From positions 1,370,072-1,434,071 of the forward strand of contig OY843751.1 of the NCBI GenBank assembly GCA_963693055.1: a DNA stretch of 64,000 nt, written 5' to 3'. The notes beneath the pieces were generated by a model. That model was not told the DNA's origin. It did not search any database and was given only the letters and a program-made list of their open reading frames with translations. How positions within the stretch are numbered: position 1 is the stretch's first letter; the number at the start of each line of letters is the position of its first letter. Made by a program: the position numbers and the translations under genes. This document shows, piece after piece, positions 5,886 through 64,000 of the stretch. This DNA is from a bacterium. Lineage in GTDB: Bacteria > Zhuqueibacterota > Zhuqueibacteria > Residuimicrobiales > Krinioviventaceae.

Positions 5886-7061
5886 TTATTTTAAAAGTTG
5901 AATTTTCTGGCTCTGATGGTAACGTGCTGTATGCATACGAACCAGATAAGTCCCGCTTGCTGCTGTTACGCCTGAATCCGTTGAGCCGTCCCATTGGATG
6001 GTATATTCACCGGCGGCCTGGTGCTGATCGGCCAGCATTTTGATCTGGCGGCCCAATATGTCATAAACAGCGAGAGTCATATGGCTGTCTATCGCTAACT
6101 GGTATTTGAGCATTGTGGTTGGATTAAAAGGATTGGGATACGCTGCGAACAACTGTGTAGTTAAAGGCACAGTTGATTTAGCAGATGTTGTTCCGATCTC
6201 GTTCCTGTCACCGTTTATATTGACTTCAAACAATCGATAACTGTAATCTGCTCCTGCTGTAATATTTGCATCCGTAAAACTGTAATCAGACGGGGAAGAC
6301 GTTGTTCCTTGTCCCGCCATTCTGTCATCGGATTGGTATGAAGCGATCTTTTGCCAGTCGGATTTATCTGTTTTGCGCTCGATGATGAACCCGAGATTAT
6401 CGGATTCGCTGGCGGTGGTCCATTGCAACTCTACAGAATTGCCTTTACCTATTGCTGAAAAGGAGAGCAGTTCAACGGGCAGGGAGGCGTCAGCTTCAAA
6501 CTGAAAATCATCTATCATTAAATAAATAACATTGTTTGTACCATAAGGTTCTATAATAAATTCAAGTTCATCCAATGTGTATGATGAATAACTGCTTAAA
6601 TCGATATATGTGAAATAATTATTTGTAGAAGTGGTGTTGAATTCGTTATAATTGATTGTATGGGTAAACTGTGTACCTCCATCGAGTTTTCCTCTTATTA
6701 ATATATTGTTATATTTTACAATCTGCTTTGAGGTATTGAGGGGAATGATATACAATTCATGAACTTTAAAATCGCTGGTAGTGTTGGTAAATGAACCCAC
6801 AGTTCCACCCCCGTATACCGGGTTGGCAAAATTAGATATAAAATAATCATCATCAAATCCCCAGCCGGCCTTGTAATCCACTTCTAACTGGCTGGTAACG
6901 TTGAAATTTAATGTTCCTTCCGAAAAGGATTTGTCACCATCGGAATGATCTGCAAATTTTTCAGTAGTTTGTGAATAAACACTTGATACAAATAAAAGCA
7001 GGGATAAAAAAATGTAGACTATAAGCGCTCTCTTTATTGAAAAATTTGAAAAATATTTCAT
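5886..7061 (-). CDS. Secreted T9SS cargo protein (N-terminal beta-rich domain + FN3-like module + T9SS CTD)
   Basis: 391 aa with a signal peptide. Module ASLPVELLSFSAIGKGNSVELQWTTASESDNLGFIIERKTDKSDW...YSYRLFEVNINGDRNEIGTTS and CTD LFAAYPNPFNPTTMLKYQLAIDSHMTLAVYDILGRQIKMLADQHQAAGEYTIQWDGSTDSG. The last ~220 nt are ~97% identical at the DNA level to the 3' end of 8496..11114. Confidence 0.8.
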   Translation of the reverse strand: MKYFSNFSIKRALIVYIFLSLLLFVSSVYSQTTEKFADHSDGDKSFSEGTLNFNVTSQLEVDYKAGWGFDDDYFISNFANPVYGGGTVGSFTNTTSDFKVHELYIIPLNTSKQIVKYNNILIRGKLDGGTQFTHTINYNEFNTTSTNNYFTYIDLSSYSSYTLDELEFIIEPYGTNNVIYLMIDDFQFEADASLPVELLSFSAIGKGNSVELQWTTASESDNLGFIIERKTDKSDWQKIASYQSDDRMAGQGTTSSPSDYSFTDANITAGADYSYRLFEVNINGDRNEIGTTSAKSTVPLTTQLFAAYPNPFNPTTMLKYQLAIDSHMTLAVYDILGRQIKMLADQHQAAGEYTIQWDGSTDSGVTAASGTYLVRMHTARYHQSQKIQLLK

Positions 7062-8050: not shown

Positions 8051-8398
8051 ATTTACTACTTTTTTTGTTTCGAGAATATTTTAGTATGATACGTATGATT
8101 TTTGATCAGGGTTAAAATTAAGGTTAGAGCAAGTGCATAAATTTGACACTTGAATTTTATTATAAATTTCCTGAATGCATATACTAATGCTTATCATGTT
8201 CCACGTATTATCTTTAGTATTGTAGAAACTTTTGTCTATTAACGTGTCGTAATGTTACTTGTCGTACAGATAAATGTACAGTAATATGTAAATTTTGATC
8301 AAATTGATATTGTTTTTCTATGGTAAGGTAAAGTTTGTTATTGATTAATATAAAAATCTAATAATGAAAAGTCAATGTTTAAAAAGGATTTACGTAAA

Positions 8399-8431
8399 AA
8401 AAGCCCTTCCTGGAAATTCCGAAAGGGCTTT
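8399..8431 (-). terminator. Rho-independent terminator of 8496..11114
   Basis: AAAGCCCTT-cctggaaattccg-AAGGGCTTT hairpin followed on the minus strand by a U7 run; downstream of the minus-strand stop at 8496. Confidence 0.55.
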
Positions 8432-8495
8432 AATTATTTTGAAAAAAGTAAGTCGGGATATTAGTATATCTAATCCATGACGAGATGGAGTTGAA

Positions 8496-13410: not shown

Positions 13411-13594
13411 AAGAACCTCATTTGTTTAGAATAGCTATTTATAATGACGGTTAGTTATTGGTAATTTCAAAACATAAATATCACAATTTTTATGCCAGGT
13501 TTTTTAGTTTGCGTTTCGGAGAGAAGAAAGAAAAGAGAACCCCCAAAGTCCTTTGTTTAGGGCTTTGAGGGTTGTAAAAGTTTTTTATGATTTT

Positions 13595-15418
13595 TTACTT
13601 CATCAATAGGATCTTTTGTACCTGTGATGTATTACCTGCTTGAAATCTTGTCAGGTACATTCCGCTTGGAGCTGCTGTACCGGAATTAGTTGTACCGTCC
13701 CAGGAGACAGATTGTTCTCCGGCTGTTTGCTGCCCGCTGACCAGTGTTTTGATCTTGCGACCCAGAACGTCGTAAACAGCCAATGTTACATGGCTGTCTT
13801 TTGCCAGATTATAATTCAGTGTTGTAGTGGGATTGAATGGATTGGGATACGCCGCAAACAGTTGCGTGCTGGTTGGTGTTCTAGTTATTTCAACAGTTGT
13901 CGTTGATAGAACATTCACCTGACCACTGGTACTGACTTCTGACAAGCGATAGGAATATTGGTTGTCAGGTAAAACAGAGGTATCGTTATAGCTGTAATGT
14001 GTAGATGATTGTTTGGCGCCTTGTCCTGTTAATTGCTCGTTTTGCAAATAAGAAGCAATCTGCTGCCATTGTGTGTTTTTGGATTTGCGCTCGATGATAA
14101 ATCCCAGGTTGTCAATTTCGCTGGCTGTGGTCCATTCCAGGTGAATTGTGTTGGCTTTGTATGATGCTGTAAAGGAGACCAGTTCCACGGGTAATGCATC
14201 GTCACCGACTTTGTACTCATATGTACCCATGTCGATGGTGCCCGCCGCTCCTGTGGTTTTATCCAGTTTTCGGTCGTAGCCGTTACCGCGGATATCATAA
14301 CTTTCAGTGCAATAGCTGTCGTTACCGGTATCGGCACAGGGAGAAATACCGGAAATACTGTAGGGATGATCTGCATTGTTGGATACACCAACAAATAGTG
14401 GATTGGTAGTGATGCAATTATTGGTGGCCGTTAGCGTGCCGCCATTATTATAAATGTCACCTGCATCGTTTCCATAGCAGCTATAATTTAAAATGGGCGC
14501 TCCTGTGTCTATATAGATTTCATTACCATTGGTAGTACTTGAATTACCCCAAATGATACAGTTATATAATTCAGGATCAGAATTGTTCGAGTATATTCCT
14601 CCTCCATTGTCCGCGGAATTACCAGTAATGGTTACATTTGTCATTTGCATGGCTGATGATAACAAACATATACTGCCACCGTCTCCATCACATGTGTTAT
14701 CACTGATCAATCCATTGATGAGAATGGGGGCGCCGGATGTATTATAAATTGCACCACCGGATACTGTTGCATAATTGCCAGTGAATGAGCAGTTGGTCAT
14801 GCTTAAACCTGATCTTGTGTTAAGTATGGCACCACCGTATTTCGCTTCATTGTTTTTAAAAGTAACATTTACAAGCGTTGGTGTGCAGGTATTATTATAC
14901 ATTCCACCACCATAAACGTGCTGTGGTTGCTCTGAGTCAACATAATATGCCATGCCATCACTGATGGTTACACCATCAAGTACAGCTGTATTATCCAGGC
15001 TGATACTATTATGATAGAATACATGGTAACAATGATCACCGCCCAGGTCGCCACTGAGAATGGTCTCATTGTCTTGTCCCGGGGCATAATTGGTGCGTTC
15101 GCTAACAACAGATTCTGTCCCTGCGAATCCACCATAGACAGTTACACCATTGATCAATCTGAAATGGTTATAAGTCGATCTGTTTCCACCAGCAAGGCCA
15201 TAGTCGTAGGAGGGGACGTAGGTGCCTTTGGCGATCCAGATTTCATCGGGAGATGCCGCAACGTTCAAGGCTGATTGTAATGAGGTGTAGGCGTGGGTCC
15301 AACTGCTACCATCATCGTTTCCAGATGCATTGATATCAACATAGATGGTGGCGCTCCATAGGGGTAGAACAATAGCAAGAGAAACAAGAACCATGAGTAT
15401 AGTCTTTTTCATGATCAA
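13595..15418 (-). CDS. Secreted PMP-like beta-helix protein + FN3-like module + T9SS CTD
   Basis: 607 aa with a signal peptide. Parallel beta-helix/PMP-type repeats (GGAILNTRSGLSMTNCSFTGN...SGGAIYNTSG...GGSICLL); module ALPVELVSFTASYKANTIHLEWTTASEIDNLGFIIERK; CTD LFAAYPNPFNPTTTLNYNLAKDSHVTLAVYDVLGRKIK. Confidence 0.85.
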   Translation of the reverse strand: MIMKKTILMVLVSLAIVLPLWSATIYVDINASGNDDGSSWTHAYTSLQSALNVAASPDEIWIAKGTYVPSYDYGLAGGNRSTYNHFRLINGVTVYGGFAGTESVVSERTNYAPGQDNETILSGDLGGDHCYHVFYHNSISLDNTAVLDGVTISDGMAYYVDSEQPQHVYGGGMYNNTCTPTLVNVTFKNNEAKYGGAILNTRSGLSMTNCSFTGNYATVSGGAIYNTSGAPILINGLISDNTCDGDGGSICLLSSAMQMTNVTITGNSADNGGGIYSNNSDPELYNCIIWGNSSTTNGNEIYIDTGAPILNYSCYGNDAGDIYNNGGTLTATNNCITTNPLFVGVSNNADHPYSISGISPCADTGNDSYCTESYDIRGNGYDRKLDKTTGAAGTIDMGTYEYKVGDDALPVELVSFTASYKANTIHLEWTTASEIDNLGFIIERKSKNTQWQQIASYLQNEQLTGQGAKQSSTHYSYNDTSVLPDNQYSYRLSEVSTSGQVNVLSTTTVEITRTPTSTQLFAAYPNPFNPTTTLNYNLAKDSHVTLAVYDVLGRKIKTLVSGQQTAGEQSVSWDGTTNSGTAAPSGMYLTRFQAGNTSQVQKILLMK

Positions 15419-15936
15419 TTCCTTGTTGTTTTGATTCGCAAACTGTTTTTTTATATGGAGATTTGAGAAAAGTAATATTGAATATAGAAAACTAGATTGT
15501 AAAAATCAAATCTAAATCATTAATTATTTTATAAATATGTTTTTTTTGATTTTGTCTCCAAATCGCATTTGGATCGGAGAGTTGTTGGTTTTTTCAAGAT
15601 TATGACCTTTTTCAATACTCACTTTGAGGCTAGGTTCCGATTATTAGAACCTGCAAATGAGATACTGTCTGCGAACGGTCTGTTTATGTTATGCTGAGAT
15701 TTCGTAAACATGAATTTATTAAAACTTTCAACTGGACAAAATATTAAAGGTTGTCCGAAATTATTTGATACGTATCTGGATAAATGTCTCAATTTCTCAT
15801 TTATCCATTTGCAGAATAGTTTCAATTCAGGTTATAAATAGTGTCTTTCGGGAATGTAGCCCTTGCTTTCAAATTCCAAAGTTTGTAATTTAAAAATTAT
15901 AGATTTTAATTATTTTTTTGTAAAGGAGGGTTATAA

Positions 15937-17982
15937 ATGCAACATTCTCTTTTTCGTTTCTTTCTTTTGGGTACTCTATTCTTTTCATTATCTCTTGTTG
16001 CTGGCCCGTCTCAATCGCGACCTTTTACAGTGCATGAACTTTTAGCCATGGAGCGTATTGGAGCCCCTCAGGCTTCACCTGATGGACAGCAAATCGTTTT
16101 TTCCATTCGTAAAACCAATCTTGAAAAAAACAAAGGAGAATATGATCTCTATCTTGTGGATATAAACGGCAATTCTTTCAAAAGGCTGACGACCCATCCT
16201 TCTATTGATACCAGTCCCTGCTGGTCTATGGATGGGCAATGGATTTATTTTCTCTCTGCGCGGTCTGAATTTATGCAGGTGTGGCGAATTAGGCCGGACG
16301 GGGGCGAAGCGGAAAGAGTAACAAGCCTTGACCTGGATATTAACGATTATACAGTCGTTCCTTCTGGCAAAGGTCTGCTCCTTTCCATTGATGTATTCCC
16401 CGGTAAATCCATTCAGGAAACAAGTGAGGTGCTGCAAGCGCATGAAAACAGTAAAGCCACCGGTAAACTTTATAATCAGGCACTGTTCCGTCATTGGGAT
16501 GTGTGGGCAGATGGACGTTTTGCCCATTTGTTTTACCTTGATTTTGAAACAATGACACCTGTTGATCTGATGAGTGACATGCAGGCTAATGCTCCAACTA
16601 AACCCTGGGGGGGAATGGAAGAGATTGCATTTACCCCTGATGAACAAAGTGTCATTTTTACCGCCAAAGATGTGGGTGACCAGTCCGCCTGGTCTACAAA
16701 TTATGATTTGTTCAAGGTACCGCTCGATGGTACCCAGGCCCCGGAATGCCTGACTGCAACAAATAAAGCTTGGGATACCCAGCCGACGTTCTCCCCGGAC
16801 GGAAAAACCCTGGCGTATCTCGCCATGGCCAGGCCTGGCTTTGAAGCAGACCAATACCATATTATGTTGCGGGATTGGCAAACCGGTACTGCCAGAGAAC
16901 TTGGAAGTACCTGGGACCGTTCTCCATCTGCTATTTTCTGGAGTCCGGATGGTAAGATTCTATTTGCGGTTGCCGAAAATCTGGGACAGCTCGCCCTCTT
17001 TGCCATTGATGTAAAGTCAGAAAAAGTAACTCCGGTGATTGAACAGGGAACCATTCGCTCTCCGGTATTTGCGGGCGAACGCATTGTATTTGGACTGGAT
17101 CACTTAAAGTCTCCGGTTGAGCTCTATTCCATACGTCCTGATGGCAAGGACCGACAACAGATCACTCATGTAAATGACGAACTTGTAAAGCAGATTGCCT
17201 GGGGTGAACCAGAACAGTTTACTTTTAAGGGATGGAATAACGAGACAGTTTATGGCTATGTTGTTAAACCAGCAAATTTTGATCCTGCAAAAGAATATCC
17301 TGTGGCATTTTTAATTCACGGCGGACCGCAAGGGTCTTTTGGTAATGATTTTCACTATCGTTGGAATCCACAAGCCTATGCAGGGGCAGGGTACGCCGCT
17401 GTAATGATCGATTTTCATGGGTCTACAGGATACGGACAGGCCTTTACCGATGCTATCCGTGAAAACTGGGGTAGCCGGCCTTTTGAGGATTTGCAAAAAG
17501 GACTTGCCGCAGCCCTGGTGAAATATCCGTGGCTAGATGGGGACAAGGTGGGCGCTCTTGGTGCATCCTATGGAGGCTATATGATCAACTGGATTGCGGG
17601 AAACTGGCCTGACCGGTTCAAGTGTTTGGTCAATCATGATGGTAATTTTGATATTCGTATGGCGTATTACGATACAGAAGAACTCTGGTTTCCCGAGTGG
17701 GAGCATGGTGGTACACCCTGGGAACGTTCTGAAGTTTATGAACTACATAATCCCGTAAATCATGTAGACAAATGGAAAACACCCATGCTCGTTGTTCATG
17801 GTGAACTGGATTATCGTGTTCCTGTCACCCAGGGTATTGGAGCGTTCAACGCTTTACAGCGCAAAGACATTCCCAGTCAGTTCCTCTGTTTCCCGGATGA
17901 AAACCACTGGGTGCTCAAACCTCACAACTCTATCTTGTGGCACAACACGGTGATTGGCTGGTTGGACAAGTGGCTAAAGTAG
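15937..17982 (+). CDS. S9 family serine peptidase (prolyl oligopeptidase / acylaminoacyl-peptidase-like), secreted
   Basis: 681 aa. Signal peptide, N-terminal beta-propeller region, C-terminal alpha/beta-hydrolase domain with GASYGGYM (GxSxG), HGELDYRVP and DENHW catalytic-triad context. AAAGGAGGG RBS 8 nt upstream. Confidence 0.85.
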   Translation: MQHSLFRFFLLGTLFFSLSLVAGPSQSRPFTVHELLAMERIGAPQASPDGQQIVFSIRKTNLEKNKGEYDLYLVDINGNSFKRLTTHPSIDTSPCWSMDGQWIYFLSARSEFMQVWRIRPDGGEAERVTSLDLDINDYTVVPSGKGLLLSIDVFPGKSIQETSEVLQAHENSKATGKLYNQALFRHWDVWADGRFAHLFYLDFETMTPVDLMSDMQANAPTKPWGGMEEIAFTPDEQSVIFTAKDVGDQSAWSTNYDLFKVPLDGTQAPECLTATNKAWDTQPTFSPDGKTLAYLAMARPGFEADQYHIMLRDWQTGTARELGSTWDRSPSAIFWSPDGKILFAVAENLGQLALFAIDVKSEKVTPVIEQGTIRSPVFAGERIVFGLDHLKSPVELYSIRPDGKDRQQITHVNDELVKQIAWGEPEQFTFKGWNNETVYGYVVKPANFDPAKEYPVAFLIHGGPQGSFGNDFHYRWNPQAYAGAGYAAVMIDFHGSTGYGQAFTDAIRENWGSRPFEDLQKGLAAALVKYPWLDGDKVGALGASYGGYMINWIAGNWPDRFKCLVNHDGNFDIRMAYYDTEELWFPEWEHGGTPWERSEVYELHNPVNHVDKWKTPMLVVHGELDYRVPVTQGIGAFNALQRKDIPSQFLCFPDENHWVLKPHNSILWHNTVIGWLDKWLK

Positions 17983-18027
17983 GTTGTAAATAATTGATTC
18001 ACTGCCGGGGGCGTTAGTTAATAAAAT

Positions 18028-18056
18028 TTGCCAGGCACATTTCTAGTGCCTGGCAA
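18028..18056. terminator. Bidirectional rho-independent terminator between convergent genes
   Basis: Perfect 11-bp inverted repeat TTGCCAGGCAC-atttcta-GTGCCTGGCAA between the 15937..17982(+) stop and the 18075..20000(-) stop, with AT-rich flanks. Confidence 0.6.
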
Positions 18057-18074
18057 TTGTAATTCAAACGTCTG

Positions 18075-20000
18075 TTATTTAATCATCATTACTTTTTGTA
18101 TAGAGGAACAATTACCTGCCTGCAAACGCACCAGGTAGGTACCGCTGGGTGCAGCTACCCCTGAATTGGTAGATCCATCCCATTCCACCTGATATTCAGC
18201 GGCGGATTGCTGCTGATTTACCAGTGTTTTAATTTCACATCCGAGTATATCATAAACGATCAGGGAAACATGACTGTCCGTTACCAGTTGATATTTCAAT
18301 GTAGTAGACGGATTAAAGGGATTGGGATAAGCCGCAAACAATTGTGTGGTCATTGGAATTGATTGAACATCTATGGATGTTGTACCAATTTCTGTTTGAA
18401 CTCCGTCTGTACTGACTTCCATCAGACGATAGGTATAACTTGATCCACTGGTTACATTTGCATCGGTTATGCGGTAATGTGACAGGGAGGAGGTTGTGCC
18501 TTGTCCGGTCAGTTCAGAGTGGGTTTGGTAGGATGCGATCTGCTTATAATCGAAATTTTCTGTACTGCGTTCAATGATGAATCCCAGATTGTCTTTTTCG
18601 CAGGCAGTGGACCATGTCAATTCTATAGAGTCTTTATCGTATTTAGCGGTAAAGGATTGCAGCTTGACCGGTAATGCTGTGTCGCTGCCGTTTTGCCATC
18701 CCAGAAAGGGGTAACCGTCATTAATGGTCCCGGAAGGGTCAATGTCCCAAATATCCTGACTGCCATTGGTAATTTCAATACTAAAGTCCCAACCAGCATA
18801 GGTAAATGTGGAAAGCGTTTTCATTTTTTCTGTGGTTTTGGGGGAAGCAGAATTTGTATCGTTTTGTCCTGTGGTTTCAGAATCATAAAAATTTGCACTT
18901 GCTGATATAGTCGTAGCCAGGGTAATGCCACCAGTAACGCTTCCGGTAACTGTACCCTTTGCGTAGCAATAGTGAATTTCGCTTTCCCCGTATACATTAC
19001 AGGCCAGAGCGGTTATCCGGTATGTTCCGAATGTATTTCCTGTTGCATAACAATTGTTAATATCACAATTATCACAATAGCCAATCAATCCACCAATATC
19101 TGCATGGCCAGTAACCTTACCTGTTGCGAAACACTGATTGATATTCGTATCTTTTGTCCAGCCGATCAGTCCACCAAGATAGTCTTGACCACTGACCGCT
19201 CCTGTAGCAGAGCATCTGGTCACTTGGCCATGATTCGTACCTATCAATCCACCTACATTATCAGTGGTGGCATTGACGCTGCCGGAAGCGTGGCAATCTG
19301 TGATTTGCCCGTAAAAACGTCCTGCCAGGCCGCCTATACTGGTGCCATTTTGCACATTCACACTGCTGCTACAGTTACTGATGATGGCATCTACATATAC
19401 GCCACCAATTATTCCTCCGGCAAGTGCGTCAGAACAAGTAACAGTTCCGGATAAAGTACAACCGGATATAGTGGTGTTTTCATAAACAGAACCAACCAGA
19501 CCTCCCACAAATCCATAAGCAGAGATATTTAAGCTTTCCATTTTAATATTATTTAATTCAGCGTTGGTAACATCCCCAAATAAACCGGCATAATTTGACT
19601 CGGGTCTGTTTATATACAGACCCGTGATGGTGAAACCTTGACCGTCATAGGTGCCTTCAAAAGGTGATAAAATAGTGCCAATGGGGCTAAAACCGGCGTA
19701 TCCGCCGTCTCCATCGGGATTCAGGGTTGCGCTTGCAGAGGCGTCAATATTATCGGTTTGTGTAAAGTGACGTGACCAGATAGTTGATGTTGTGCTGATC
19801 CATATCAGATGGTCAAATTCAGAAATAAGATACGGATCATAATATGCACCTGTGCCGGGCGGCTGCGTACCCGCAGCCAATAAAGGGCCTGTAAATGTCA
19901 GAGTAATGCAAAATATAGACAGATATTTTTTACTTTTGAAAAATATTCTGTGGTTTGTGATAAGAAAAGAGTTGATAAAATATGATAATAAAATTTTCAT
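18075..20000 (-). CDS. Secreted GLUG-repeat protein + FN3-like module + T9SS CTD
   Basis: 641 aa. Multiple GGLVG/GGLIG/GGLAG repeats (GLUG motif, as in IgA1-protease-like and Bacteroides surface proteins); module ALPVKLQSFTAKYDKDSIELTWSTACEKDNLGFIIERS; CTD LFAAYPNPFNPSTTLKYQLVTDSHVSLIVYDILGCEIK. Confidence 0.8.
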   Translation of the reverse strand: MKILLSYFINSFLITNHRIFFKSKKYLSIFCITLTFTGPLLAAGTQPPGTGAYYDPYLISEFDHLIWISTTSTIWSRHFTQTDNIDASASATLNPDGDGGYAGFSPIGTILSPFEGTYDGQGFTITGLYINRPESNYAGLFGDVTNAELNNIKMESLNISAYGFVGGLVGSVYENTTISGCTLSGTVTCSDALAGGIIGGVYVDAIISNCSSSVNVQNGTSIGGLAGRFYGQITDCHASGSVNATTDNVGGLIGTNHGQVTRCSATGAVSGQDYLGGLIGWTKDTNINQCFATGKVTGHADIGGLIGYCDNCDINNCYATGNTFGTYRITALACNVYGESEIHYCYAKGTVTGSVTGGITLATTISASANFYDSETTGQNDTNSASPKTTEKMKTLSTFTYAGWDFSIEITNGSQDIWDIDPSGTINDGYPFLGWQNGSDTALPVKLQSFTAKYDKDSIELTWSTACEKDNLGFIIERSTENFDYKQIASYQTHSELTGQGTTSSLSHYRITDANVTSGSSYTYRLMEVSTDGVQTEIGTTSIDVQSIPMTTQLFAAYPNPFNPSTTLKYQLVTDSHVSLIVYDILGCEIKTLVNQQQSAAEYQVEWDGSTNSGVAAPSGTYLVRLQAGNCSSIQKVMMIK

Positions 20001-20146
20001 ACAACATCTCCCTTTCGTTCAAAAGGTTGTCGGTTTGTTATCTATAGCAATATCAAACGTCGAAATTGCTGGAGATGTTTGGGATTATATTCATAAATTA
20101 ATAATAATCCCCCATAAAGGCAACAATGTTTTTAGGGTTGTAGATG

Positions 20147-20770
20147 GGGGAATTTCGACGGATAGAAAAAATTCCCAGACACCGATGAGGTGCCTGGGAA
20201 TAGTAATGTTCTATATGTGAAATAGGGATGGTTTTTATGGAACCTGCGAATTTTTACCACTATTGGGTTTAACCACCAAATAGTCTGTAGCGTTAACACT
20301 GCCATTCATGTTACAGTCAGAGGGATTATAACTCGCTGATCCGCTTTGGCCTTTGACAGTGAGATAGTCGGTCGCGTTTATAATACCGCTGTTATTCGCG
20401 TCTCCACTAAACATACCGTAAATGCCGGTTTCTAACTGTGCAGCGCTGCCGCCGTAATATTTGTCATAGGGTGTTGATTCATCCACGGTAAAATTATAGG
20501 TTGTCAGTGTACCGCTTAAACTCTGTGCTGTGGCGCTCATGATTGCCAAATGATTGCGGTGACGAATGACAATGTAATAGTCGCCCGGTGCCAGACCTGT
20601 GAGGGTGAGGTTGGTTACGGTACCATCGTCCTCAGCCAGATAGCCGTCGCTGCGCAGGATATAAGAGCGGCTGTACACAGCTTCACCATCTACAGTTGAG
20701 CGTAATTCCATACAAACCCAGTCGGTAATGCCTTCGGGGATACTGCCGGCATTACGATTGTCAGAATAGA
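20147..20770. repeat. Near-identical ~0.6-kb duplicated block (copy A) covering the 3' coding end of 20235..22340 plus its terminator
   Basis: 20147-~20770 is essentially identical to 23627-~24250. The encoded C-terminal ~170 aa are nearly identical (NRNAGSIPEGITDWVCMELRSTVDGEAVYSRSY...NSGKNSQVP), as are the 88 bp downstream of the stop. Confidence 0.8.
20161..20200 (-). terminator. Rho-independent terminator of 20235..22340 (inside the duplicated block)
   Basis: Minus-strand RNA forms UUCCCAGGCACC-ucauc-GGUGUCUGGGAA (12 bp, one G.U) followed by UUUUUUCUAUC. Confidence 0.55.
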
Positions 20771-22340
20771 AAGAGGTTGCGGGAATAATGCCTGCCAGAT
20801 TTGTGCCCATATTGTGGGCGCCGCTATCATAGGGGCCTTGCAGATAGACTTTGACGGCAAGCTGGGGCGTTCCTTCGTCAGTGGTAAACGATTTTACATT
20901 GCCATAAAAAGTGCCGTAACAATTGGAACAAAAAGTGCGATGATAATAGGTGGTGTTGGGCGCAAGACTGGTCACTGTGCCTGAAAAAAAGCCAAATCCG
21001 CTGCCCATGGGTGCTTGTTCATCTGCCAGGGTAGGTGTTTTGTTGGTGGAGCTGTAACAAACACCCCGACGAAGTGTAGTGACTCCATTGTATTCATAGA
21101 CATTGCCGCCAAACTCGGCAGTGGTGGCGGTAATGCTTTCCGCGTCGTACGAAGCGATGCAGTAAGGATCAATATAATATGTATCTGAGCTGCCTTTTTT
21201 AATACCCACAATGCCGTCGTCACTGCCCACCAAGAGGTCAACTCTTCTATCGCCGTTCAGGTCGGTTTGGGCCAGAACAGATTTGTCGCCTACATCAATG
21301 TCATTCCAGTTTGTGGTTACTCTGGAAAACGATAATGATGCAATACCGCTTTGCTGATAAAGCTGAATTTGACCGTCAACATTGCCAATAAAAAACTCAT
21401 ATCTAGAGTTATTATCATAATAACAAAACATGGGTGACGGCAGCTCGCCAACGTCAATGGAATTGAAATTATCGCTGACAAGCGTAAAAGTGGTAGATGT
21501 CCCGCTGTCTTGTTGGTAATGGTAAATGGCGCCGCCCAGGTTGCCCACCAGCAGATCGAGGCGGCCATTCCGATCGAGATCGGTAAAAGTAGGTTTAGAG
21601 TACCCACCCACATCAATACCGCTCAGGGCACCGACAAGGGTAAACGACGCGGAGCGGTCGCTGTCTTGTTCAAAATGGCGCAGGGTACCGTCGTCGCGGC
21701 CCATGATCAGGTCAAGCAGGCCGTCATCATCCAGGTCTGTAACCGTGGGGAAATTACAGGTGCCTACATCAATATTGTTAAAGTAAGATGTGATGAGATT
21801 GAATGAAAACGAGTTGATCTCAGATTGTTCATATCGCGATATTCTGCCGTTTTTATTGCCTACCAGCATGTCCAGCAGGCCATCTCCATCAATGTCGGTT
21901 ATGGTGGGGGCGGCGTTTTCGCCCACGTTGATATTGGTCATGTCTGACGTTTCAAATTGTAGTGAATAACCATAGCTGCCCGTACCGGCGCGGTTGGTGG
22001 CGCTGACCCGCCAAAAATAGTAGGTACTGTTGGCGGGCAGATCAACAGCATAGTTTGTGTCTTCTATGCCGGTATATGTTCCCACAATGTCGGTAAATTG
22101 ATAATCATTCGCGATCTGAACGTTATAAGTCAGGGCATGGTCTATGTTTTCCCAAAATAAATAGGCCCGGCAAGAGAGCAGCTCAAGATTGGGATATCTG
22201 GGACCGACCAGTTCAGGCGCCGGACTTGGCGCTCTGGATGTGAGGGATACCGCTCCTGATTCGCCATTTCCCGTTTGTGCAAATGTTGTGCTGGTAAAGG
22301 CCAAAACCCATACTACCAAAAGAACAAATAATTTTTTCAT
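20235..22340 (-). CDS. Secreted FN3 + FG-GAP/beta-propeller repeat protein with dockerin-like C-terminal double calcium-binding repeat
   Basis: 701 aa with signal peptide MKKLFVLLVVWVLAFTSTTFAQ. It has an FN3 domain, repeated FG-GAP-like motifs (DIDGDGLLDMLVGN, TDLDDDGLLDLIMG, TDLDRNGRLDLLVGN), and a C-terminus GDANNSGIINATDYLTVK...DCNMNGSVNATDYLVVK (two 12-residue Ca-loop-like segments each followed by a YLxVK helix start). There is no T9SS CTD. Confidence 0.8.
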   Translation of the reverse strand: MKKLFVLLVVWVLAFTSTTFAQTGNGESGAVSLTSRAPSPAPELVGPRYPNLELLSCRAYLFWENIDHALTYNVQIANDYQFTDIVGTYTGIEDTNYAVDLPANSTYYFWRVSATNRAGTGSYGYSLQFETSDMTNINVGENAAPTITDIDGDGLLDMLVGNKNGRISRYEQSEINSFSFNLITSYFNNIDVGTCNFPTVTDLDDDGLLDLIMGRDDGTLRHFEQDSDRSASFTLVGALSGIDVGGYSKPTFTDLDRNGRLDLLVGNLGGAIYHYQQDSGTSTTFTLVSDNFNSIDVGELPSPMFCYYDNNSRYEFFIGNVDGQIQLYQQSGIASLSFSRVTTNWNDIDVGDKSVLAQTDLNGDRRVDLLVGSDDGIVGIKKGSSDTYYIDPYCIASYDAESITATTAEFGGNVYEYNGVTTLRRGVCYSSTNKTPTLADEQAPMGSGFGFFSGTVTSLAPNTTYYHRTFCSNCYGTFYGNVKSFTTDEGTPQLAVKVYLQGPYDSGAHNMGTNLAGIIPATSFYSDNRNAGSIPEGITDWVCMELRSTVDGEAVYSRSYILRSDGYLAEDDGTVTNLTLTGLAPGDYYIVIRHRNHLAIMSATAQSLSGTLTTYNFTVDESTPYDKYYGGSAAQLETGIYGMFSGDANNSGIINATDYLTVKGQSGSASYNPSDCNMNGSVNATDYLVVKPNSGKNSQVP

Positions 22341-57748: not shown

Positions 57749-58861
57749 TTGGGGCTAGATTTCAAAAATATAGACTTGGTGAATGATCACGTTAGAGACG
57801 TACAGGCACTTTTTGCTCTAAACCGGGTAACGGATTCTATACAAATTATGGATGAATTGGGAAAAAGTGTCTTCCACAATGATTCGTTTATCAATTTGTT
57901 TGGCTATACAGTTGACCAGTTGAATGAAGCGGGTGGTTTGTATGCTATTCTTAAAGATCCTCAAATTGCAAATATTATTGTAAACGAGTTGGAAGTTAAG
58001 CCCGGTTGGATGGGTAAAGTTCAAATTTATACATTAGCGGGCAACCTTGTTTCAGTTGTATTGAGGATTAACAAGGTTAAAACAGAAAATAATGAAAACC
58101 AGGGATACGTTTGTTTTTTTTCAAACAATCTGTATCAGTATAATGTATATGCTGAAAAAGGCAAATATTACAGACACTTTGAAGAAGCAGAAAAGCTCGC
58201 CAGATTGGGGTATTTCTCATCAGTTATTTCTCATGAATTAAACAATCCTTTAAACATTATTAATACAAAGATTTATTTTTTGCAAAGAGAGCTGGAATCG
58301 ATTTCTAAAGAATCTGAAGTGTGGGAACATTTAACAAAGATCAAACAGCAACTCAAACGGTTGAAAAATCTAGCAAGCAGTGTTTTGCAATATGCCAGAC
58401 ATGATGTAAAAAAAGATTATCTTGTTAATGTTAACCAGGTGATACAGCGTACTTTGGAATTCTTTGATGATCAGCTTACAGATGAAATAATTGTAATAAA
58501 TAGATTAGATAAAGAAGTATCGCTTGTTCCTGCAGATTCAACGGGGTTAGAGATTGTATTTAAAAATTTGATATCTAATGCAATTGAAGCGTTGGAAGAA
58601 TCCGGCACAATCACAATATCCACCCGAAATGTAAATGAAAAATTTATTGAAATTACAATATCTGATTCCGGTAAAGGTATATCCGAAGATTTGCAGGAAA
58701 AGGTATTTGACCCCTTTTTCACCAGTAAAAGTAAAGAAGGGGGCTATGGATTGGGTCTAAGTATTTGTGAAAATATTATACATGAGCACAATGGAATGAT
58801 TAATCTAAGAAGCAGGATTGGCAGAGGAACAACGTTTGTCTTACTATTACCCCGTTTGTAA
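57749..58861 (+). CDS. Cytoplasmic PAS-domain sensor histidine kinase
   Basis: N-terminal PAS-like region; HisKA (FSSVISHELNNPLNII); HATPase_c (NLISNAIEA...ISDSGKGIS...GGYGLGLSICENIIHEHNGMINLRSRIGRGTTF). Confidence 0.8.
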   Translation: MGLDFKNIDLVNDHVRDVQALFALNRVTDSIQIMDELGKSVFHNDSFINLFGYTVDQLNEAGGLYAILKDPQIANIIVNELEVKPGWMGKVQIYTLAGNLVSVVLRINKVKTENNENQGYVCFFSNNLYQYNVYAEKGKYYRHFEEAEKLARLGYFSSVISHELNNPLNIINTKIYFLQRELESISKESEVWEHLTKIKQQLKRLKNLASSVLQYARHDVKKDYLVNVNQVIQRTLEFFDDQLTDEIIVINRLDKEVSLVPADSTGLEIVFKNLISNAIEALEESGTITISTRNVNEKFIEITISDSGKGISEDLQEKVFDPFFTSKSKEGGYGLGLSICENIIHEHNGMINLRSRIGRGTTFVLLLPRL

Positions 58862-58876
58862 TAAGGGATTTATTAT

Positions 58877-60253
58877 ATGTTCAAAGTACTGCTGGTTGAT
58901 GACGAAATAGAAATTCTAAGAGATTACTCTCGTTTGATCATGGAAATGGGTTATCAATGCATTATTGCCAGAAATGGTGAAGAAGCGATCGAGTTGTTGA
59001 AACAAGAACATCCGGATATAATTTTGACGGATCAGAAAATGCCCAAAAAGGGTGGCATGTCTGTATTGCAGGAAGCATATGCGCTAGACAAGTCCATACC
59101 AGTGATTCTGATTACAGGGTATGGCTCTGTAAAAAATGCCGTGGATGCCATGAAGTTTGGTGCGTTTGATTATCTGCAAAAGCCATTTGATCCTGAAAAA
59201 ATGCAGGAATTGCTGAAAAAGGCGGAAAAGTTTCGTAAAGAAAAATTAAATATTCCTATCGTTGAACTGGATGGGGATTACAGCAAGCCGCTTGAAGGGG
59301 TAATAGGGAAAAGCAAAGTTATTACCGATATTACAAAACGAGTATACAAAGTAGCGCCATCCATTTCTAATGTGTTAATCTATGGAGAATCTGGTACCGG
59401 CAAAGAACTTGTTGCCCGCAACATCCACTTGAACAGTAAACGTAAAGATCAACCCTTTATACCACTGGATTGCAGTGCGCTCCCGGCAAATCTGTTAGAA
59501 AGCGAAATGTTTGGCTATGAAAAAGGCGCGTTTACAGGGGCTGATAGGGAAAAACCCGGAGTTATTGAGCTTGCGCATAAAGGTACTTTGTTTCTGGATG
59601 AAATAACAGAACTGGATGCCAGCTTGCAATCAAAGTTGTTACGTTTTATTCAGGAACGGCATTTCCGTAAAGTGGGAGGCCAGAAATTAGTCAAAGTTGA
59701 TGTTCGTATTATTTCAGCAACCAATCGAAATCCTGAAGAGGCAGTTAAAGAGAAATTGTTACGTAGTGATCTGTATTATAGATTAAATGTAGTTCCTTTC
59801 TTTATTCCTCCTTTGAGAGATCGAAGTGAAGATGTTTCCATACTCGTACAGCATTTCATTGAAAAGTTTAATCCTTCATTCGCACGCGAGATCAAGGGAG
59901 TGAGTTCAGATGCCATGTTGTGTTTAAAGCGATTCAACTGGCCGGGTAATGTTAGGGAGCTTCAGAATGTGATTGAACAAGCCATGTCTTTGGCAGATAA
60001 AAATATAATCGATTTGTCAGATTTGCCACCCCATGTGCGGGAAAACCACAACAACTATGTAGATCAGGTCCATCATGGACAAACATTCAAAGATGCAAAA
60101 GAGAAAATATTAAAACAGTTTGGTAAAAGATATTTTCAAGACCTGCTTGTTCAGTGTGATGGCAATATCTCAAAAACCGCGAAAATAGCAGGTATCAGTA
60201 GAAGTTCATTTTATCGTATACTTGATGAATTTGATATAAAACTGCCCGATTAA
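58877..60253 (+). CDS. Sigma54-dependent NtrC-family response regulator (REC + AAA+ sigma54 activator + Fis-type HTH)
   Basis: Receiver (MFKVLLVDDE...DIILTDQKMP); Walker A GESGTGKELVARNIH; the GAFTGA motif (EKGAFTGADREKPG); C-terminal HTH (ISKTAKIAGISRSSFYRIL). Confidence 0.9.
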   Translation: MFKVLLVDDEIEILRDYSRLIMEMGYQCIIARNGEEAIELLKQEHPDIILTDQKMPKKGGMSVLQEAYALDKSIPVILITGYGSVKNAVDAMKFGAFDYLQKPFDPEKMQELLKKAEKFRKEKLNIPIVELDGDYSKPLEGVIGKSKVITDITKRVYKVAPSISNVLIYGESGTGKELVARNIHLNSKRKDQPFIPLDCSALPANLLESEMFGYEKGAFTGADREKPGVIELAHKGTLFLDEITELDASLQSKLLRFIQERHFRKVGGQKLVKVDVRIISATNRNPEEAVKEKLLRSDLYYRLNVVPFFIPPLRDRSEDVSILVQHFIEKFNPSFAREIKGVSSDAMLCLKRFNWPGNVRELQNVIEQAMSLADKNIIDLSDLPPHVRENHNNYVDQVHHGQTFKDAKEKILKQFGKRYFQDLLVQCDGNISKTAKIAGISRSSFYRILDEFDIKLPD

Positions 60254-60484
60254 TTGTATTTGTACTATTCTTGACACACCCTTCCTATTACTTGTTTTTA
60301 TTAGACATCCATTCATTTAGTCCTTTGTATGCTCTGTTTTTGAATCAATTTTCGCATTTTTCGTAAATTATATCGAAATAGTGGTTTTTTAACTGTTTAA
60401 TTATCAAAGTGTTATCTTGATTGCTACAGGTAATTGTGGCCCTTTTTTTGTTTATTGTGTCATAATTCATCGTGGGAAAATATC

Positions 60485-60886
60485 ATGTGTTCACTTGCGT
60501 TAATTTCTTCAACAGATATTCAGTTGATAAACGAGATCAATTCTCTGTTATTAACCAGGAATTTTTCTGTACTGGTTGAGAAATCCAGAGTGTCTTTACT
60601 ATACTTGATTCTAAAACATGATATTAATTTTATCCTCTTGGACATTGGTTATATGGATCCTGAAGCGATCAAAGTGCTTTACATAATTAAGCAGTTGCGT
60701 CCCAAATTGCCAGTTATTGTTTTAACCCCGGACAATTCGGTAGTTCACAATCAGGTATTAAAATCAATGGATGTGTTTTATGTTGGTTTTAAGCCATTGC
60801 ATTATCAAAATTTTTCAATGATTATAGATACCTTGCTATTACTTCGTGGTAAAAGTACCGAATATTTATTAGACTCGATTGAATGA
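60485..60886 (+). CDS. Stand-alone receiver (REC)-like single-domain response regulator
   Basis: Start at ATG 60485 preferred over the track's TTG at 60434. DINFILLDIGYMDPEAIKVLYIIKQLRPKLPVIVLTPDNS...VGFKP retains the phospho-acceptor Asp, the Thr and the Lys positions, but the N-terminal acidic pocket is atypical (STD). No output domain. Confidence 0.45.
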   Translation: MCSLALISSTDIQLINEINSLLLTRNFSVLVEKSRVSLLYLILKHDINFILLDIGYMDPEAIKVLYIIKQLRPKLPVIVLTPDNSVVHNQVLKSMDVFYVGFKPLHYQNFSMIIDTLLLLRGKSTEYLLDSIE

Positions 60887-61164
60887 GCTATATAATTGAC
60901 TTGTTTTGTACGTTTTGTAGTACACTATCGTAATTGTAATAAAATTAAATTCTTAGCAGTTGTTTTGCTTTGTAATGTCTTATTTTTAGTACAATTCAGG
61001 AAGAGTTCGAGGTTTTTTGCGAATTATTAGTTTTTTCGCTTCATAATTTACAAGTATTTAGCTCAAGAAATTGAAGCGATTAAAATCAAGTATGGCATAA
61101 TCATTGGATAAGAAGTGTATATAATTTCAAATAAGATTAAAATGCTTTTTGGGGCAATGCGGGC

Positions 61165-61770
61165 ATGGGACTAGTAGGTTTTGTGATTAACATTTACAAT
61201 GGCAAGCAAAAGCTTGATAGGGTATTGATTTGTATAATCATAATGTTAATGACAAATATTAATTTTGTTTTCTCTCAAGATCAAGATTCTACATCTGTGG
61301 ATTCTGTAAAGCAAAGCAAGACCCGGGATATTTTGCAGAAATTGTTGAATCAGGCAACTCAGGAATCTATTCAGGATGTAATGGAAAAGCAAAAAGCCAT
61401 TGCGAAAAAAGATAGTGTCAAAGACAGCTCAGATGAAGGTCTTGAAATTGATGGATTATTGATCAATGAAACCAAAACTAAAATTGGCCAGGACTTTTAC
61501 GAATTCTTTTTCAATTTTTGGCAGGCACCTGAGAATGCTAAAGATTTTACATTGTTTGTGTCTGAAAGACCAACAGGAAACAGCGGAAGCTGGATCTGGG
61601 TAAATGTGAATGAAACCACAGTATTTCAAAACCGATTAACCCCCAAAGCCGACTTGATTGAGGAAACTGCACAAAGCGCTGTATCTATTGTCACAAATTA
61701 TTTGATAAATCTGGATCAAAACCAAAGACAGCTTGCTGGTGATGAAATGGCTGGGACTGGAATTTTTTAA
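61165..61770 (+). CDS. csgE: Curli assembly/transport component CsgE homolog
   Basis: EIDGLLINETKTKIGQDFYEFFFNFWQ...FTLFVSERPTGNSGSWIWVNVNETTVFQNRL aligns with E. coli CsgE (GLLTDHTVSSIGHDFYRAF...[24 protein letters not shown]). The start is uncertain among 61165, 61183 and 61243. Confidence 0.75.
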   Translation: MGLVGFVINIYNGKQKLDRVLICIIIMLMTNINFVFSQDQDSTSVDSVKQSKTRDILQKLLNQATQESIQDVMEKQKAIAKKDSVKDSSDEGLEIDGLLINETKTKIGQDFYEFFFNFWQAPENAKDFTLFVSERPTGNSGSWIWVNVNETTVFQNRLTPKADLIEETAQSAVSIVTNYLINLDQNQRQLAGDEMAGTGIF

Positions 61771-61782: not shown

Positions 61783-62208
61783 ATGCCTCGGGTAGTTAAA
61801 TGTTTTATACTTTTAATTTTATTTGCAAGCAGTGCATTTGCAACTGAATTGGTTTTTACGTTTGTTAATCCTGCTTTTGGCGGTTACTATTATAATGCTA
61901 CATGGTTGTTGAATTCTGCACAACTTCAAGATGATACCGGTGAATCTTCAAGTTCTTATGCCAGCAGTTATTATTCTGGATCATCCCTGGAAGATTTTGA
62001 AGAAAGTATAAACCGTCAGATTCTGAGTCGTTTATCCAGCAAGCTTGTGACGCAAATATTTGGAGAAGAAGATCTGGAACCTGGTCACTATGAGATTGGT
62101 GATTTTCAGATTGATGTAACTCCATCAGACAATGGGATACGTGTTGAAATAAATGATCCGGTTAATGGCGGCGAAACAGTTATAGAATTACCCTATTATG
62201 GTGACTGA
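61783..62208 (+). CDS. csgF: Curli assembly/transport component CsgF homolog
   Basis: Signal peptide, then ELVFTFVNPAFGGYYYNATWLLNSAQLQ matching the CsgF N-terminus ([28 protein letters not shown]); ...SINRQILSRLSSKLV matches CsgF QSQILGGLLS. Confidence 0.8.
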   Translation: MPRVVKCFILLILFASSAFATELVFTFVNPAFGGYYYNATWLLNSAQLQDDTGESSSSYASSYYSGSSLEDFEESINRQILSRLSSKLVTQIFGEEDLEPGHYEIGDFQIDVTPSDNGIRVEINDPVNGGETVIELPYYGD

Positions 62209-63640
62209 GAGTAGTGTAAATATGAAAATGAGACCTGTATTCTATACAATTTTTATAATTATTTTGATTTTTATGGGGTGTGCTCCCTATTTACAGCAAA
62301 GTAATCCTGTTCACACCACCCCGGCTACATTGGGGTATACCACTGCAATACATAGCGATTTGCTTTCATTGCCTGAACCACGTGAAAAGATTGTTGTTGC
62401 GGTATACAAGTTTAGAGACCAGACCGGACAGTACAAAGCTTCGTCAAGTGGAATGACATGGTCCACAGCTGTTACCCAGGGTGCTACATCTATGCTGCTA
62501 AAAGCTATGGAAGAATCTGGTTGGTTTATTGTTGTGGAGCGGGAAGGCATTTCAAACCTGTTGAATGAAAGAAAGATCATTCGTTCTACCCGAGAGAATT
62601 ATACGGACGACCAGGGACAGCAATTACCCCCATTACCTCCATTGCTTTATGCCGGAGTTACAATAGAGGGTGGAATAATTTCGTACGAAACCAATACATT
62701 AACCGGTGGTTTTGGCGCACGATATTTCGGCATAGGGGGTAATAACGAGTTTCGCAGTGATCAGGTAAATATTTATTTACGTTCGGTTGCAACAAAATCC
62801 GGTCGGATTTTAAATCAGGTAAATACTACAAAGACAATATTATCTCAAGCTGTAGATTTTAGTGTATATAAATTTGTAAGAGAAAGCCGTTTGTTAGAGA
62901 TTGAGAGCGGTTATTCTACCAACGAACCTCCACAAATGTGTGTGCTGGAAGCCATAGAAAAAGCCGTACTGGCTCTTGTTTGTGAAGGTATTGTATCAAA
63001 GAGCTGGGAGCTGAAAAATCCTGCGGATATTAAATCCCCGGTAATACAGCGGTATCTTGAGGAAAAGCAAAACACAACAAAATATACGTTGCAGAATAGT
63101 ATGCTCAACAGCAGATATGCAAAACCTCAATATGGTTATGACAAGGGATTAGGGCTCACCTTGAATTTGGGAAGTCATTTATACCAGGGCGATTACGCGA
63201 ATTCTGAAATTCGTCCAATGGGTGACGCTTCCATTTTGTGGGGTTTGCATCCCAATGTTTTGTTGGAATTAAATGGCAGTATAGGGCGGATTGCAAATAA
63301 AGATAATTTTTATACTGATTTGGGTTATTTGAATTTACAAAGCCGTTTTACATTTTGGTCTAATTCAAGATTTCGGCCATTCGGAATTTTGGGAGCGGGA
63401 GCAATGAATTTTAGAGCACGGGATAAAGCGGGTGTGTACATTCCACGTAAGAAACGGTTTAAAGGCTGGGAGCCTGTAATGATTTCTGGTTTAGGCGTTG
63501 AATATTTTATTAATCCCAGTTTGAGTATGAATCTAAGCTTTATAAATCAATATACCTTTACAGATTACCTGGATGGGGTTATCCATGGAAGTTATGATGA
63601 CTATTTCTGGGGATTCAAGCTGGGGTTTAGTTATTATTAG
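62198..63640 (+). CDS. csgG: Curli secretion channel CsgG homolog with ~190-aa C-terminal beta-barrel-like extension
   Basis: Lipoprotein signal (FMGCAP). KIVVAVYKFRDQTGQYK...GWFIVVEREGISNLLNERKIIRS...GGFGARYFGIGGNNEFRSDQVNIYLRSV...TILSQAVDFSVYKF...ESGYSTNEPPQMCVLEAIEKAV aligns along the full E. coli CsgG. An extra C-terminal region (residues ~290-480) has alternating hydrophobic strands and ends ...FWGFKLGFSYY. Overlaps csgF by 11 nt. Confidence 0.9.
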   Translation: MVTESSVNMKMRPVFYTIFIIILIFMGCAPYLQQSNPVHTTPATLGYTTAIHSDLLSLPEPREKIVVAVYKFRDQTGQYKASSSGMTWSTAVTQGATSMLLKAMEESGWFIVVEREGISNLLNERKIIRSTRENYTDDQGQQLPPLPPLLYAGVTIEGGIISYETNTLTGGFGARYFGIGGNNEFRSDQVNIYLRSVATKSGRILNQVNTTKTILSQAVDFSVYKFVRESRLLEIESGYSTNEPPQMCVLEAIEKAVLALVCEGIVSKSWELKNPADIKSPVIQRYLEEKQNTTKYTLQNSMLNSRYAKPQYGYDKGLGLTLNLGSHLYQGDYANSEIRPMGDASILWGLHPNVLLELNGSIGRIANKDNFYTDLGYLNLQSRFTFWSNSRFRPFGILGAGAMNFRARDKAGVYIPRKKRFKGWEPVMISGLGVEYFINPSLSMNLSFINQYTFTDYLDGVIHGSYDDYFWGFKLGFSYY

Positions 63641-63882: not shown

Positions 63883-64000
63883 ATGAGAATTTTCATGTCT
63901 GTTCTACTGGCACTGTTGTTATTTTCAAGTGTTGGTATTGGTGCAGAAAACAGTGTGACTGCTAATGTAAACGGTAATTTCAATCAATCAACAGTTACGC
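63883..64000 (+). CDS. Curlin-like (CsgA/CsgB-type) secreted amyloid subunit candidate, N-terminal fragment (runs off window)
   Basis: GAGGAGTGAGG RBS, MRIFMSVLLALLLFSSVGIGA signal peptide, then ENSVTANVNGNFNQSTVT resembling the N/Q/G-rich S-x5-Q-x-G-x-x-N repeat start of curlins. Only ~39 codons are visible. Confidence 0.35.
   Translation, partial: MRIFMSVLLALLLFSSVGIGAENSVTANVNGNFNQSTVT

Follow-up and report, generated by a model that had tools for sequence, protein, structure and literature searches.

The csgG gene analysed here (62198..63640, forward strand) lies at the end of a stretch of 64,000 nucleotides, the window, taken from a bacterium of the family Krinioviventaceae in the phylum Zhuqueibacterota (assembly GCA_963693055.1, contig OY843751.1, positions 1,370,072 to 1,434,071). 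It encodes a protein in which the subunit of the curli secretion pore, CsgG, is extended at its C-terminus by a second domain predicted to fold as an eight-stranded outer-membrane β-barrel. The structural description of the chain as a CsgG domain, a linker and an eight-stranded barrel can be put forward with high confidence. As an explanation of the whole, a curli CsgG pore subunit that carries a linker-tethered outer-membrane barrel of the PorG/OmpA-like kind is the reading favoured here, with moderate confidence.

CsgG serves as the model of amyloid export and has found wide use as a sequencing nanopore; to our knowledge, all structural and mechanistic work on it has used the enterobacterial form of approximately 260 residues. 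The original prediction, made from the DNA sequence without database searches, had noticed a CsgG homologue with an extension of approximately 190 residues resembling an integral outer-membrane barrel, which might anchor or gate the channel. It had treated the protein as unusual, and this did not hold, as the fused form turned out to be the standard CsgG of its lineage.

The CsgG domain

The open reading frame (ORF) comprises 480 amino acids (aa) from its first ATG and ends with the residues GFSYY and a stop codon at 63638-63640. Translation probably starts at the second in-frame ATG (62222) rather than at 62198; a 97%-identical orthologue (P0001) is called from that ATG as a protein of 472 aa. 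From there (MKMRPV...) a lipoprotein signal peptide spans 62222..62281 and leads to a lipobox (FMG-C) with the cysteine at position 28 in the ORF numbering, which is used throughout. By inspection of the sequence and of the alignment, this cysteine (...IILIFMG-C28) is kept in at least 90% of 101 homologues, and the N-terminus is predicted to be a typical lipoprotein signal.

The CsgG domain extends over aa 19-286 (62252..63055). The Pfam CsgG model (PF03783) matches aa 58-273 with 206 bits (E 5e-61, cutoff 20.8), the NCBIfam CsgG model matches aa 18-287, and the PDB chains of E. coli CsgG are aligned by phmmer to aa 19-286 alone (E 7e-64). In a Foldseek comparison, the N-terminal half of the model matches the E. 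coli structure 4uv2 with an E-value of 2.6e-21, 42% identity and a template modelling score relative to the target (TMt) of 0.81. The equivalog model PRK15184 gives 234 bits against a cutoff of 505; it is tuned to enterobacterial CsgG, so that the miss marks divergence and not non-homology.

Across the segments GGxGARYFGIG and TKTILS...LLE, the channel-forming region aligns with that of E. coli CsgG (3x2r) with a gap of at most one residue. By taking into account the published structure, we take the aligned E. coli region to be the two transmembrane hairpins, and both the hairpin segments and the constriction loop are predicted to be present in the fused protein. Compared with E. coli, the constriction-loop region has one additional residue, and a Trp is conserved in it (consensus WSTAV). 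Overall, the lipoprotein signal, the CsgG fold and the channel-forming region are common to the window protein and to the E. coli protein (4UV3, 4UV2, 3X2R, 6SI7, 6L7A), at approximately 42% identity. On the Pfam score, the lipobox, the hairpin segments and the operon context taken together, the fused protein is assigned to the CsgG family.

The two proteins differ in what follows. E. coli CsgG stops approximately nine residues past the aligned region, whereas the fused protein goes on for another 194 residues or so of linker and barrel. Since the alignment with E. coli CsgG ends at aa 286, these residues have no counterpart in canonical CsgG, and the extension of approximately 190 residues noticed at the outset is confirmed.

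The C-terminal barrel

Beyond the CsgG domain, a poorly conserved linker of approximately 30 residues (aa 287-317, 63056..63148), partly helical in the model, bridges the C-terminal helix of CsgG, which is periplasmic, and a C-terminal domain of approximately 165 residues (aa 318-480, 63149..63637). The delimitation of the latter as an eight-stranded barrel draws on AlphaFold2 and Foldseek, a weak match to the Pfam model OMP_b-brl, a PorG-like NCBIfam match, the amphipathicity of the strands and the conservation of the individual segments. In the full-length AlphaFold2 model, computed from an alignment of 101 sequences, the tail forms eight long antiparallel strands (aa 318-330, 339-351, 354-367, 371-385, 392-409, 425-437, 442-453 and 469-479) with predicted local distance difference test (pLDDT) values of 91-98. 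When the domain was modelled alone, from 30 sequences, the same eight strands were obtained with a mean pLDDT of 92.6 and a predicted template modelling score (pTM) of 0.85. From strand to strand, long connections (8, 3, 15 and 15 aa) take turns with short ones (2, 6 and 4 aa), so that the model describes a closed antiparallel eight-stranded barrel whose long loops lie on one side and whose short turns lie on the other. Hydrophobic and polar residues alternate along the strands, and the chain has an aromatic end (KLGFSYY), the last four residues of which had been noted in the original prediction; a simple hydropathy count gives a clear difference between the two faces for six of the eight strands.

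When the tail was compared with the PDB by Foldseek, only small outer-membrane barrels were found. The transmembrane domain of OmpA (9fzc_A) was matched with an E-value of 7e-9, a template modelling score relative to the query (TMq) of 0.70 and a TMt of 0.73, and NspA (1p4t) with a TMq of 0.70, a TMt of 0.80 and a root mean square deviation of 3.0; OmpW, Ail, the N-terminal domain of OprF, OmpX and PagL followed as lower-ranked entries. The predicted fold is thus common to the N-terminal transmembrane domain of OmpA and OprF, NspA, Ail, OmpX and OmpW, with TMq up to 0.70 and TMt up to 0.80. The suggestion that the extension is of the integral outer-membrane type is borne out by these models and matches, and the globular periplasmic fold that had been named as the alternative outcome of structure prediction did not appear. 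The tail is therefore described as having an eight-stranded outer-membrane protein (OMP) fold in the model, with its insertion in the membrane as a prediction.

The comparison with OmpA and OprF can be carried further. Both couple a barrel to a periplasmic module, and relatives of the window barrel precede OmpA_C domains in other proteins. The window protein differs from them in that its barrel is C-terminal to its partner, and in that this partner, instead of binding peptidoglycan, is an oligomeric lipoprotein that forms a pore. A second comparison is with FapF, the exporter of functional amyloid in Pseudomonas, which also provides an outer-membrane barrel for amyloid export and gives a weak structural match (5o68_F, E 2.4e-3). 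FapF is a 12-stranded, plugged, trimeric barrel and is itself the conduit. In contrast, in the fused protein the CsgG domain would serve as the conduit and the barrel would be accessory to it.

Continuity and distribution of the fusion

The joining of the two domains is a conserved feature. A protein search returned 5579 homologues with an E-value of 0.001 or below among 8000 candidates, of which the best 120 were examined; 119 of them cover 91-100% of the query, with lengths of 422-662 aa, mostly 440-491 aa, the sole exception being a protein of 324 aa (P0044). At the genome level, a scan of one genome per species by full-length alignment yielded 594 relatives, and at 79 of the best 80 loci the match runs through residues 477-480 of the query. 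The extension is therefore conserved among the homologues, and the possibility that it is a separate ORF created by a frameshift, raised at the outset, is excluded. Its length is 178-211 aa among the homologues, with a linker of variable length.

With separate tblastn queries at 81 loci, the barrel was found at 80, csgF at 79, csgE at 75 and curlin-like genes within approximately 6 kb at about 55. Identity to the window protein is 49-65% in the CsgG domain and 23-40% in the barrel, and rises to 96% and 97%, respectively, for L001 and L002.

Cultured isolates with the fusion include Flavobacterium frigoris PS1, F. pygoscelis, F. qiangtangense, Hymenobacter jeollabukensis, H. artigasi, H. pini, Sunxiuqinia rutila, Draconibacterium sp. 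and Puteibacter caeruleilacunae. It is also found in metagenome-assembled genomes (MAGs) of Marinifilum, Saprospiraceae, Cyclobacteriaceae, Ignavibacteria, Melioribacteraceae and Calditrichia. The initial assumption of a Bacteroidota-type setting stands insofar as Bacteroidota carry the fusion, but the nearest relatives of the window protein are labelled KSB1, Calditrichia and Ignavibacteria, so that the setting is not strictly that of Bacteroidota. Judging from these distributions, the barrel-fused protein is the usual, lineage-typical form of CsgG in bacteria of the Fibrobacterota-Chlorobiota-Bacteroidota (FCB) group and no peculiarity of the window.

Three fused csgG operons of the FCB type were binned elsewhere, namely with Saccharibacteria (L003), Porticoccaceae (Gammaproteobacteria, L036) and Hyphobacterium (Alphaproteobacteria, L042); bin contamination or horizontal transfer is the likely cause of their placement.

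The barrel as a module and its relation to PorG

A profile built from the barrel alone, when searched against 1.84 billion representative proteins, matched 2972 of them with an E-value of 1e-3 or below and 459 with 1e-10 or below. The best 150 matches fall into three groups, in which the barrel forms the C-terminus of CsgG fusions of approximately 460 aa, a short protein, or the N-terminus (aa 24-195, approximately) of proteins of 310-490 aa. Among seven short, seemingly stand-alone matches that were examined, several look like fragments of fusions, as they begin inside the C-terminal helix of CsgG.

Ten of the matches were sampled for a Pfam scan. In three of them (P0138, P0170 and P0159) an N-terminal barrel is joined to the peptidoglycan-binding domain OmpA_C. 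In P0161 the barrel is followed by a coiled coil and tetratricopeptide repeats (TPRs) similar to those of YfiO/BamD, and in P0123 two barrels precede TPRs; past the repeats, no informative Pfam name was obtained for the TPR architecture. A metagenomic CsgG of 662 aa (P0005) carries two tandem barrels after the CsgG domain which, if both insert, would place 18 satellite barrels around a nonamer. Thus, from the domain combinations, the barrel is a PorG/OmpA-like module that FCB phyla join to various periplasmic partners.

The link to PorG stems from the NCBIfam model T9SS_PorG (NF052316), which was matched by all 30 barrel domains compared with it, with a best E-value of 1.5e-17, all of them below the 130-bit equivalog cutoff. 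At the sequence level, the only solved structure matched by the tail is OprF, with an E-value of 0.01, so that the barrel relationship rests on the predicted fold together with the PorG profile.

PorG is an eight-stranded outer-membrane barrel that is disulfide-bonded to PorK and is essential for secretion (PMC12365241). The PorK/N ring of the T9SS (type IX secretion system) is fastened to the outer membrane by PorK's lipid and by PorG, the bond to PorK being made by Cys232 in the C-terminal tail of PorG, which is substoichiometric to PorK (PMC12365241). The parallel with the fused CsgG is twofold. Both barrels are small, eight-stranded and found in FCB-group bacteria, and each has a covalent connection, through a disulfide in one case and through the peptide chain in the other, with an outer-membrane lipoprotein that forms a ring in a secretion machine. 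The differences are also clear. PorG has a cysteine-bearing C-terminal tail and is encoded in a T9SS locus, whereas the window barrel has no tail, its chain stopping right after strand 8, and no cysteine is found within aa 300-480; its neighbours are curli genes and not those of a T9SS. Furthermore, the fusion fixes the stoichiometry at 1:1, unlike that of PorG to PorK. By these features the window barrel is seen as related to PorG but not as a PorG.

Conservation pattern

Conservation is unevenly distributed along the chain. The mean column conservation is 0.79 in the CsgG domain and falls to 0.29 in the linker (aa 287-317), in which residues 302-308 have a pLDDT below 50 in the full-length model. 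The low conservation and the variable length of the linker are as would be expected for a tether.

Within the barrel, the strands score 0.36-0.52 and the loops L2 and L3 and turns T1 and T3 only 0.27-0.29, with turn T2 at 0.47. The highest values belong to the loops L1 (0.58), with the motif GDY (aa 331-333), and L4 (0.61), with the motif TDxLDGxxxGxxxD (aa 455-468). Four acidic residues in these motifs, D332, D456, D459 and D468, are invariant in the 101 sequences. The L4 motif (DxLDG...D) is also found in the barrels linked to OmpA_C and to TPRs, which marks it as a trait of the barrel family rather than a site peculiar to curli.

Possible roles of the fused barrel

In the mechanism proposed, the CsgG domains would form the canonical nonameric pore of 36 strands, served by CsgE and CsgF, and the periplasmic C-terminus of each protomer would lead through the linker into its own eight-stranded barrel. 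The β-barrel assembly machinery (BAM) would insert each small barrel beside the pore, and as many as nine satellite barrels would then form a collar around it. The barrel may then act as a second, protein-based membrane anchor for the ring-forming lipoprotein, as a device for its assembly or targeting, or as both, and would be a peptide-linked counterpart of PorG, the disulfide-bonded tether of the PorK lipoprotein ring in the T9SS. In the standard topology of outer-membrane proteins both termini of the barrel are periplasmic, and by taking into account the published structures we presume that the C-terminal helix of CsgG lies in the periplasm. As both ends to be joined would lie on the same side of the membrane, the fusion is topologically consistent.

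The anchor or assembly function is proposed by analogy and is judged to have somewhat better than even chances. It is supported by the modularity of the barrel, which is joined to OmpA_C and TPR modules elsewhere, and by the relation to PorG. Thus, of the two functions suggested in the original prediction, anchoring has gained support from these comparisons, while gating has found none.

Several observations weigh against the favoured interpretation of the fused protein as a CsgG pore subunit with a PorG/OmpA-like anchoring barrel. At the level of families, the match of aa 316-479 to the Pfam model OMP_b-brl (PF13505) reaches 16.6 bits (E 0.009), under the gathering threshold of 28.7, and the PorG model gives 36.8 bits with the barrel and 32.4 bits with the full-length protein, well short of the cutoff of 130. 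By these scores the tail is best described as PorG/OmpA-like, and would be a member of neither family; many homologues carry a precomputed PF13505 match and P0005 scores 40.6 bits. The full-length monomer model has a pTM of only 0.56, so that the orientation between the domains is not fixed. The lipid anchor is retained, which leaves the need for a second anchor unexplained. At locus L022, from a MAG of Thermodesulfobacteriota, the gene at 6001..6921 encodes an unfused CsgG of 306 aa in a csgE-csgF-csgG-curlins operon, the only unfused one among the best 80 loci, and the barrel is thus dispensable in at least some lineages. The product is 63% identical to the window CsgG domain, a value that most fused relatives beyond the clade of the query do not exceed, and a split arrangement, with a separate barrel gene next to the unfused csgG, was sought, but no barrel gene was found near this csgG; at this locus, either the barrel may have been lost or the operon may have been transferred horizontally. 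Finally, the loops L1 and L4, which are predicted to face outwards, outscore the strands in conservation, which would not be usual in an anchor that is only passive and may point to a specific surface or structural role.

An extended version of the mechanism would make the whole assembly a composite machine, in which the 36-stranded CsgG pore is ringed by nine PorG-like barrels (approximately 108 strands in all), assembly depends on BAM, in contrast to that of E. coli CsgG, acidic loops form a ring at the fibre exit, and the barrels are required. This version is put forward only tentatively, and it is doubtful that all of its parts hold. If it were true, the barrels would be needed for pore assembly, fibre attachment or secretion, and the arrangement would be the fused counterpart of the essential PorG-PorK link.

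The conserved loops could also be explained by an active role at the cell surface, which is considered unlikely, although no other alternative to anchoring fares better. Nine copies of the acidic loops would then ring the exit of the pore, where they could bind divalent cations or lipopolysaccharide, or dock CsgF, the nucleator or the nascent fibres, and would help curli to be attached or nucleated where they are secreted. The proposal fits the predicted extracellular position of L1 and L4, by the standard topology, their standing as the most conserved parts of the barrel and the invariance of the four aspartates, and PorG appears to be active beyond tethering (PMC12365241). However, the L4 motif is kept in the OmpA_C-linked and TPR-linked barrels, which have no connection with curli, so that it is a generic structural feature, and the loops could equally fold into the barrel or cap it.

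Slightly less probable is a role restricted to biogenesis, in which the barrel would make CsgG a substrate of BAM, target and concentrate the protomers, and have no function after assembly. Such a device would suit bacteria whose sorting of lipoproteins differs from that of E. coli. The C-terminus resembles a β-signal (K-L-G-F-S-Y-Y in the window protein, GxxYY[LF] in homologues), and among the best 80 loci the fusion is confined to FCB-group lineages. Assembly of E. coli CsgG is reported to require neither BamA nor TamA (Dunstan 2015, cited in PMC12611786), and another route here would be a genuine difference. On the other side, the retained lipobox indicates that targeting of the Lol type is presumably still in use; the idea moreover overlaps with permanent anchoring, and the data do not separate the two.

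A gate, or a separate conduit beside the CsgG channel, is very improbable. OmpW and OprG, which carry small hydrophobic molecules, are among the structural matches, but the best of them, the OmpA transmembrane domain, NspA, Ail and OmpX, are closed, non-conducting barrels; the barrel hangs on a long and variable tether outside the CsgG fold, no element of it extends as far as the lumen or the constriction loop of CsgG, and periplasmic gating in known curli systems is carried out by CsgE, which is present here. An artefact, in the form of a frameshift or of a gene-calling join of csgG to a separate OMP gene, or a soluble periplasmic extension can be set aside as hardly tenable, as the barrel scores below the Pfam and NCBIfam cutoffs are all that could be held out for them, against a single continuous ORF, the same architecture in 119 of the 120 top protein clusters and in 79 of the best 80 loci (cultured isolates included), a closed eight-stranded AlphaFold2 barrel with a pLDDT of 92.6 and structural matches to membrane barrels only.

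The curli locus

The genes around the fused csgG are those of a curli, or type VIII secretion, system, and from their content the locus is considered a genuine one, with the partners CsgE and CsgF and curlin substrates encoded nearby as in the E. coli curli system. Immediately upstream, csgF (61783..62208, forward strand, 141 aa; Pfam PF10614, E 1e-38) overlaps the first ATG of csgG by 11 nucleotides. The mature N-terminus of its product, TELVFTFVNPAFGG, appears similar to that part of E. coli CsgF which, as we take it from published CsgG:CsgF structures, inserts into the CsgG barrel. It is preceded by csgE (61165..61770, forward strand, 201 aa; Pfam PF10627, E 5e-26), whose product has a segment similar to a signal peptide, then a polar stretch of approximately 55 residues rich in Lys, Asp, Ser and Gln, and then the CsgE domain (aa 95-194). 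The window CsgE is thus longer than that of E. coli, which has approximately 130 aa.

Downstream of csgG, only the start of a first curlin-like subunit gene (63883..64000, forward strand) lies within the window. Its N-terminus matches a repeat protein of 437 aa encoded at 11662..12975 of the orthologous locus L001, which lies on a 3.64-Mb contig of a MAG and is 88.6% identical to the window at the DNA level over 10 kb. At this locus, csgG is followed by at least seven consecutive genes at 11662..21419 (437, 379, 369, 813, 362, 458 and at least 326 aa). Pfam Curlin_rpt matches were found in four of them, two being weak or faint; by eye, curlin-like repeats can be seen in the products of 437 and 813 aa. 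In comparison with E. coli csgBA, these genes are far more numerous and far larger.

Directly upstream of the curli operon lie genes for a histidine kinase and a sigma-54-dependent response regulator (57749..60253, forward strand). Between the response regulator and csgE, a small ORF (60434..60886, forward strand) has a degenerate receiver as its only domain (Response_reg, under the cutoff with E 2e-4), the L001 equivalent of which is a called gene of 136 aa at 8261..8671; its product could be a curli-specific regulator in place of the missing CsgD. A sigma-54 promoter upstream of csgE, to which the neighbouring sigma-54 activator pointed, was considered and rejected, as a scan with the -24/-12 consensus returned 47 sites against 59 expected by chance, and only weak sites with two mismatches, at 60954 and 61093, precede csgE.

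Concluding remarks

No description of a barrel-fused CsgG was found in the literature, in a search that left most subscription journals outside its range, so that a prior mention is possible. A survey of curli systems that included Bacteroidetes found the size of CsgG to be unaffected by large differences in the size of CsgA (PMC3521004), and a survey of outer-membrane proteins in TCDB gives the CsgG family a length of 283 +/- 48 aa (PMC4827864). Neither of these, nor OMPdb (PMC9581022) or a review of amyloids of 2025 (PMC12822426), mentions the fused form. Public databases hold thousands of such fusions as 'CsgG/HfaB family protein' or 'curli production assembly/transport component CsgG', many with precomputed matches to both PF13505 and PF03783. 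Thus, the architecture is already present in databases under generic names and has apparently not been studied.

The practical value of the finding is modest and consists of better annotation and of a possible scaffold for engineered pores. The fusion is carried by genetically tractable Flavobacterium and Hymenobacter, which makes the idea directly testable. For the biology of these bacteria it indicates that the CsgG of curli operons normally carries a small barrel of its own in Bacteroidota, Ignavibacteria, Calditrichia and related lineages, and this would imply an assembly route and an outer-membrane footprint different from those of the enterobacterial protein, with a pore ringed by satellite barrels. 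Together with PorG and PorK, the fused CsgG points to a recurring design of the FCB group, in which barrels of the PorG type are covalently tied to ring-forming lipoproteins of secretion machines.

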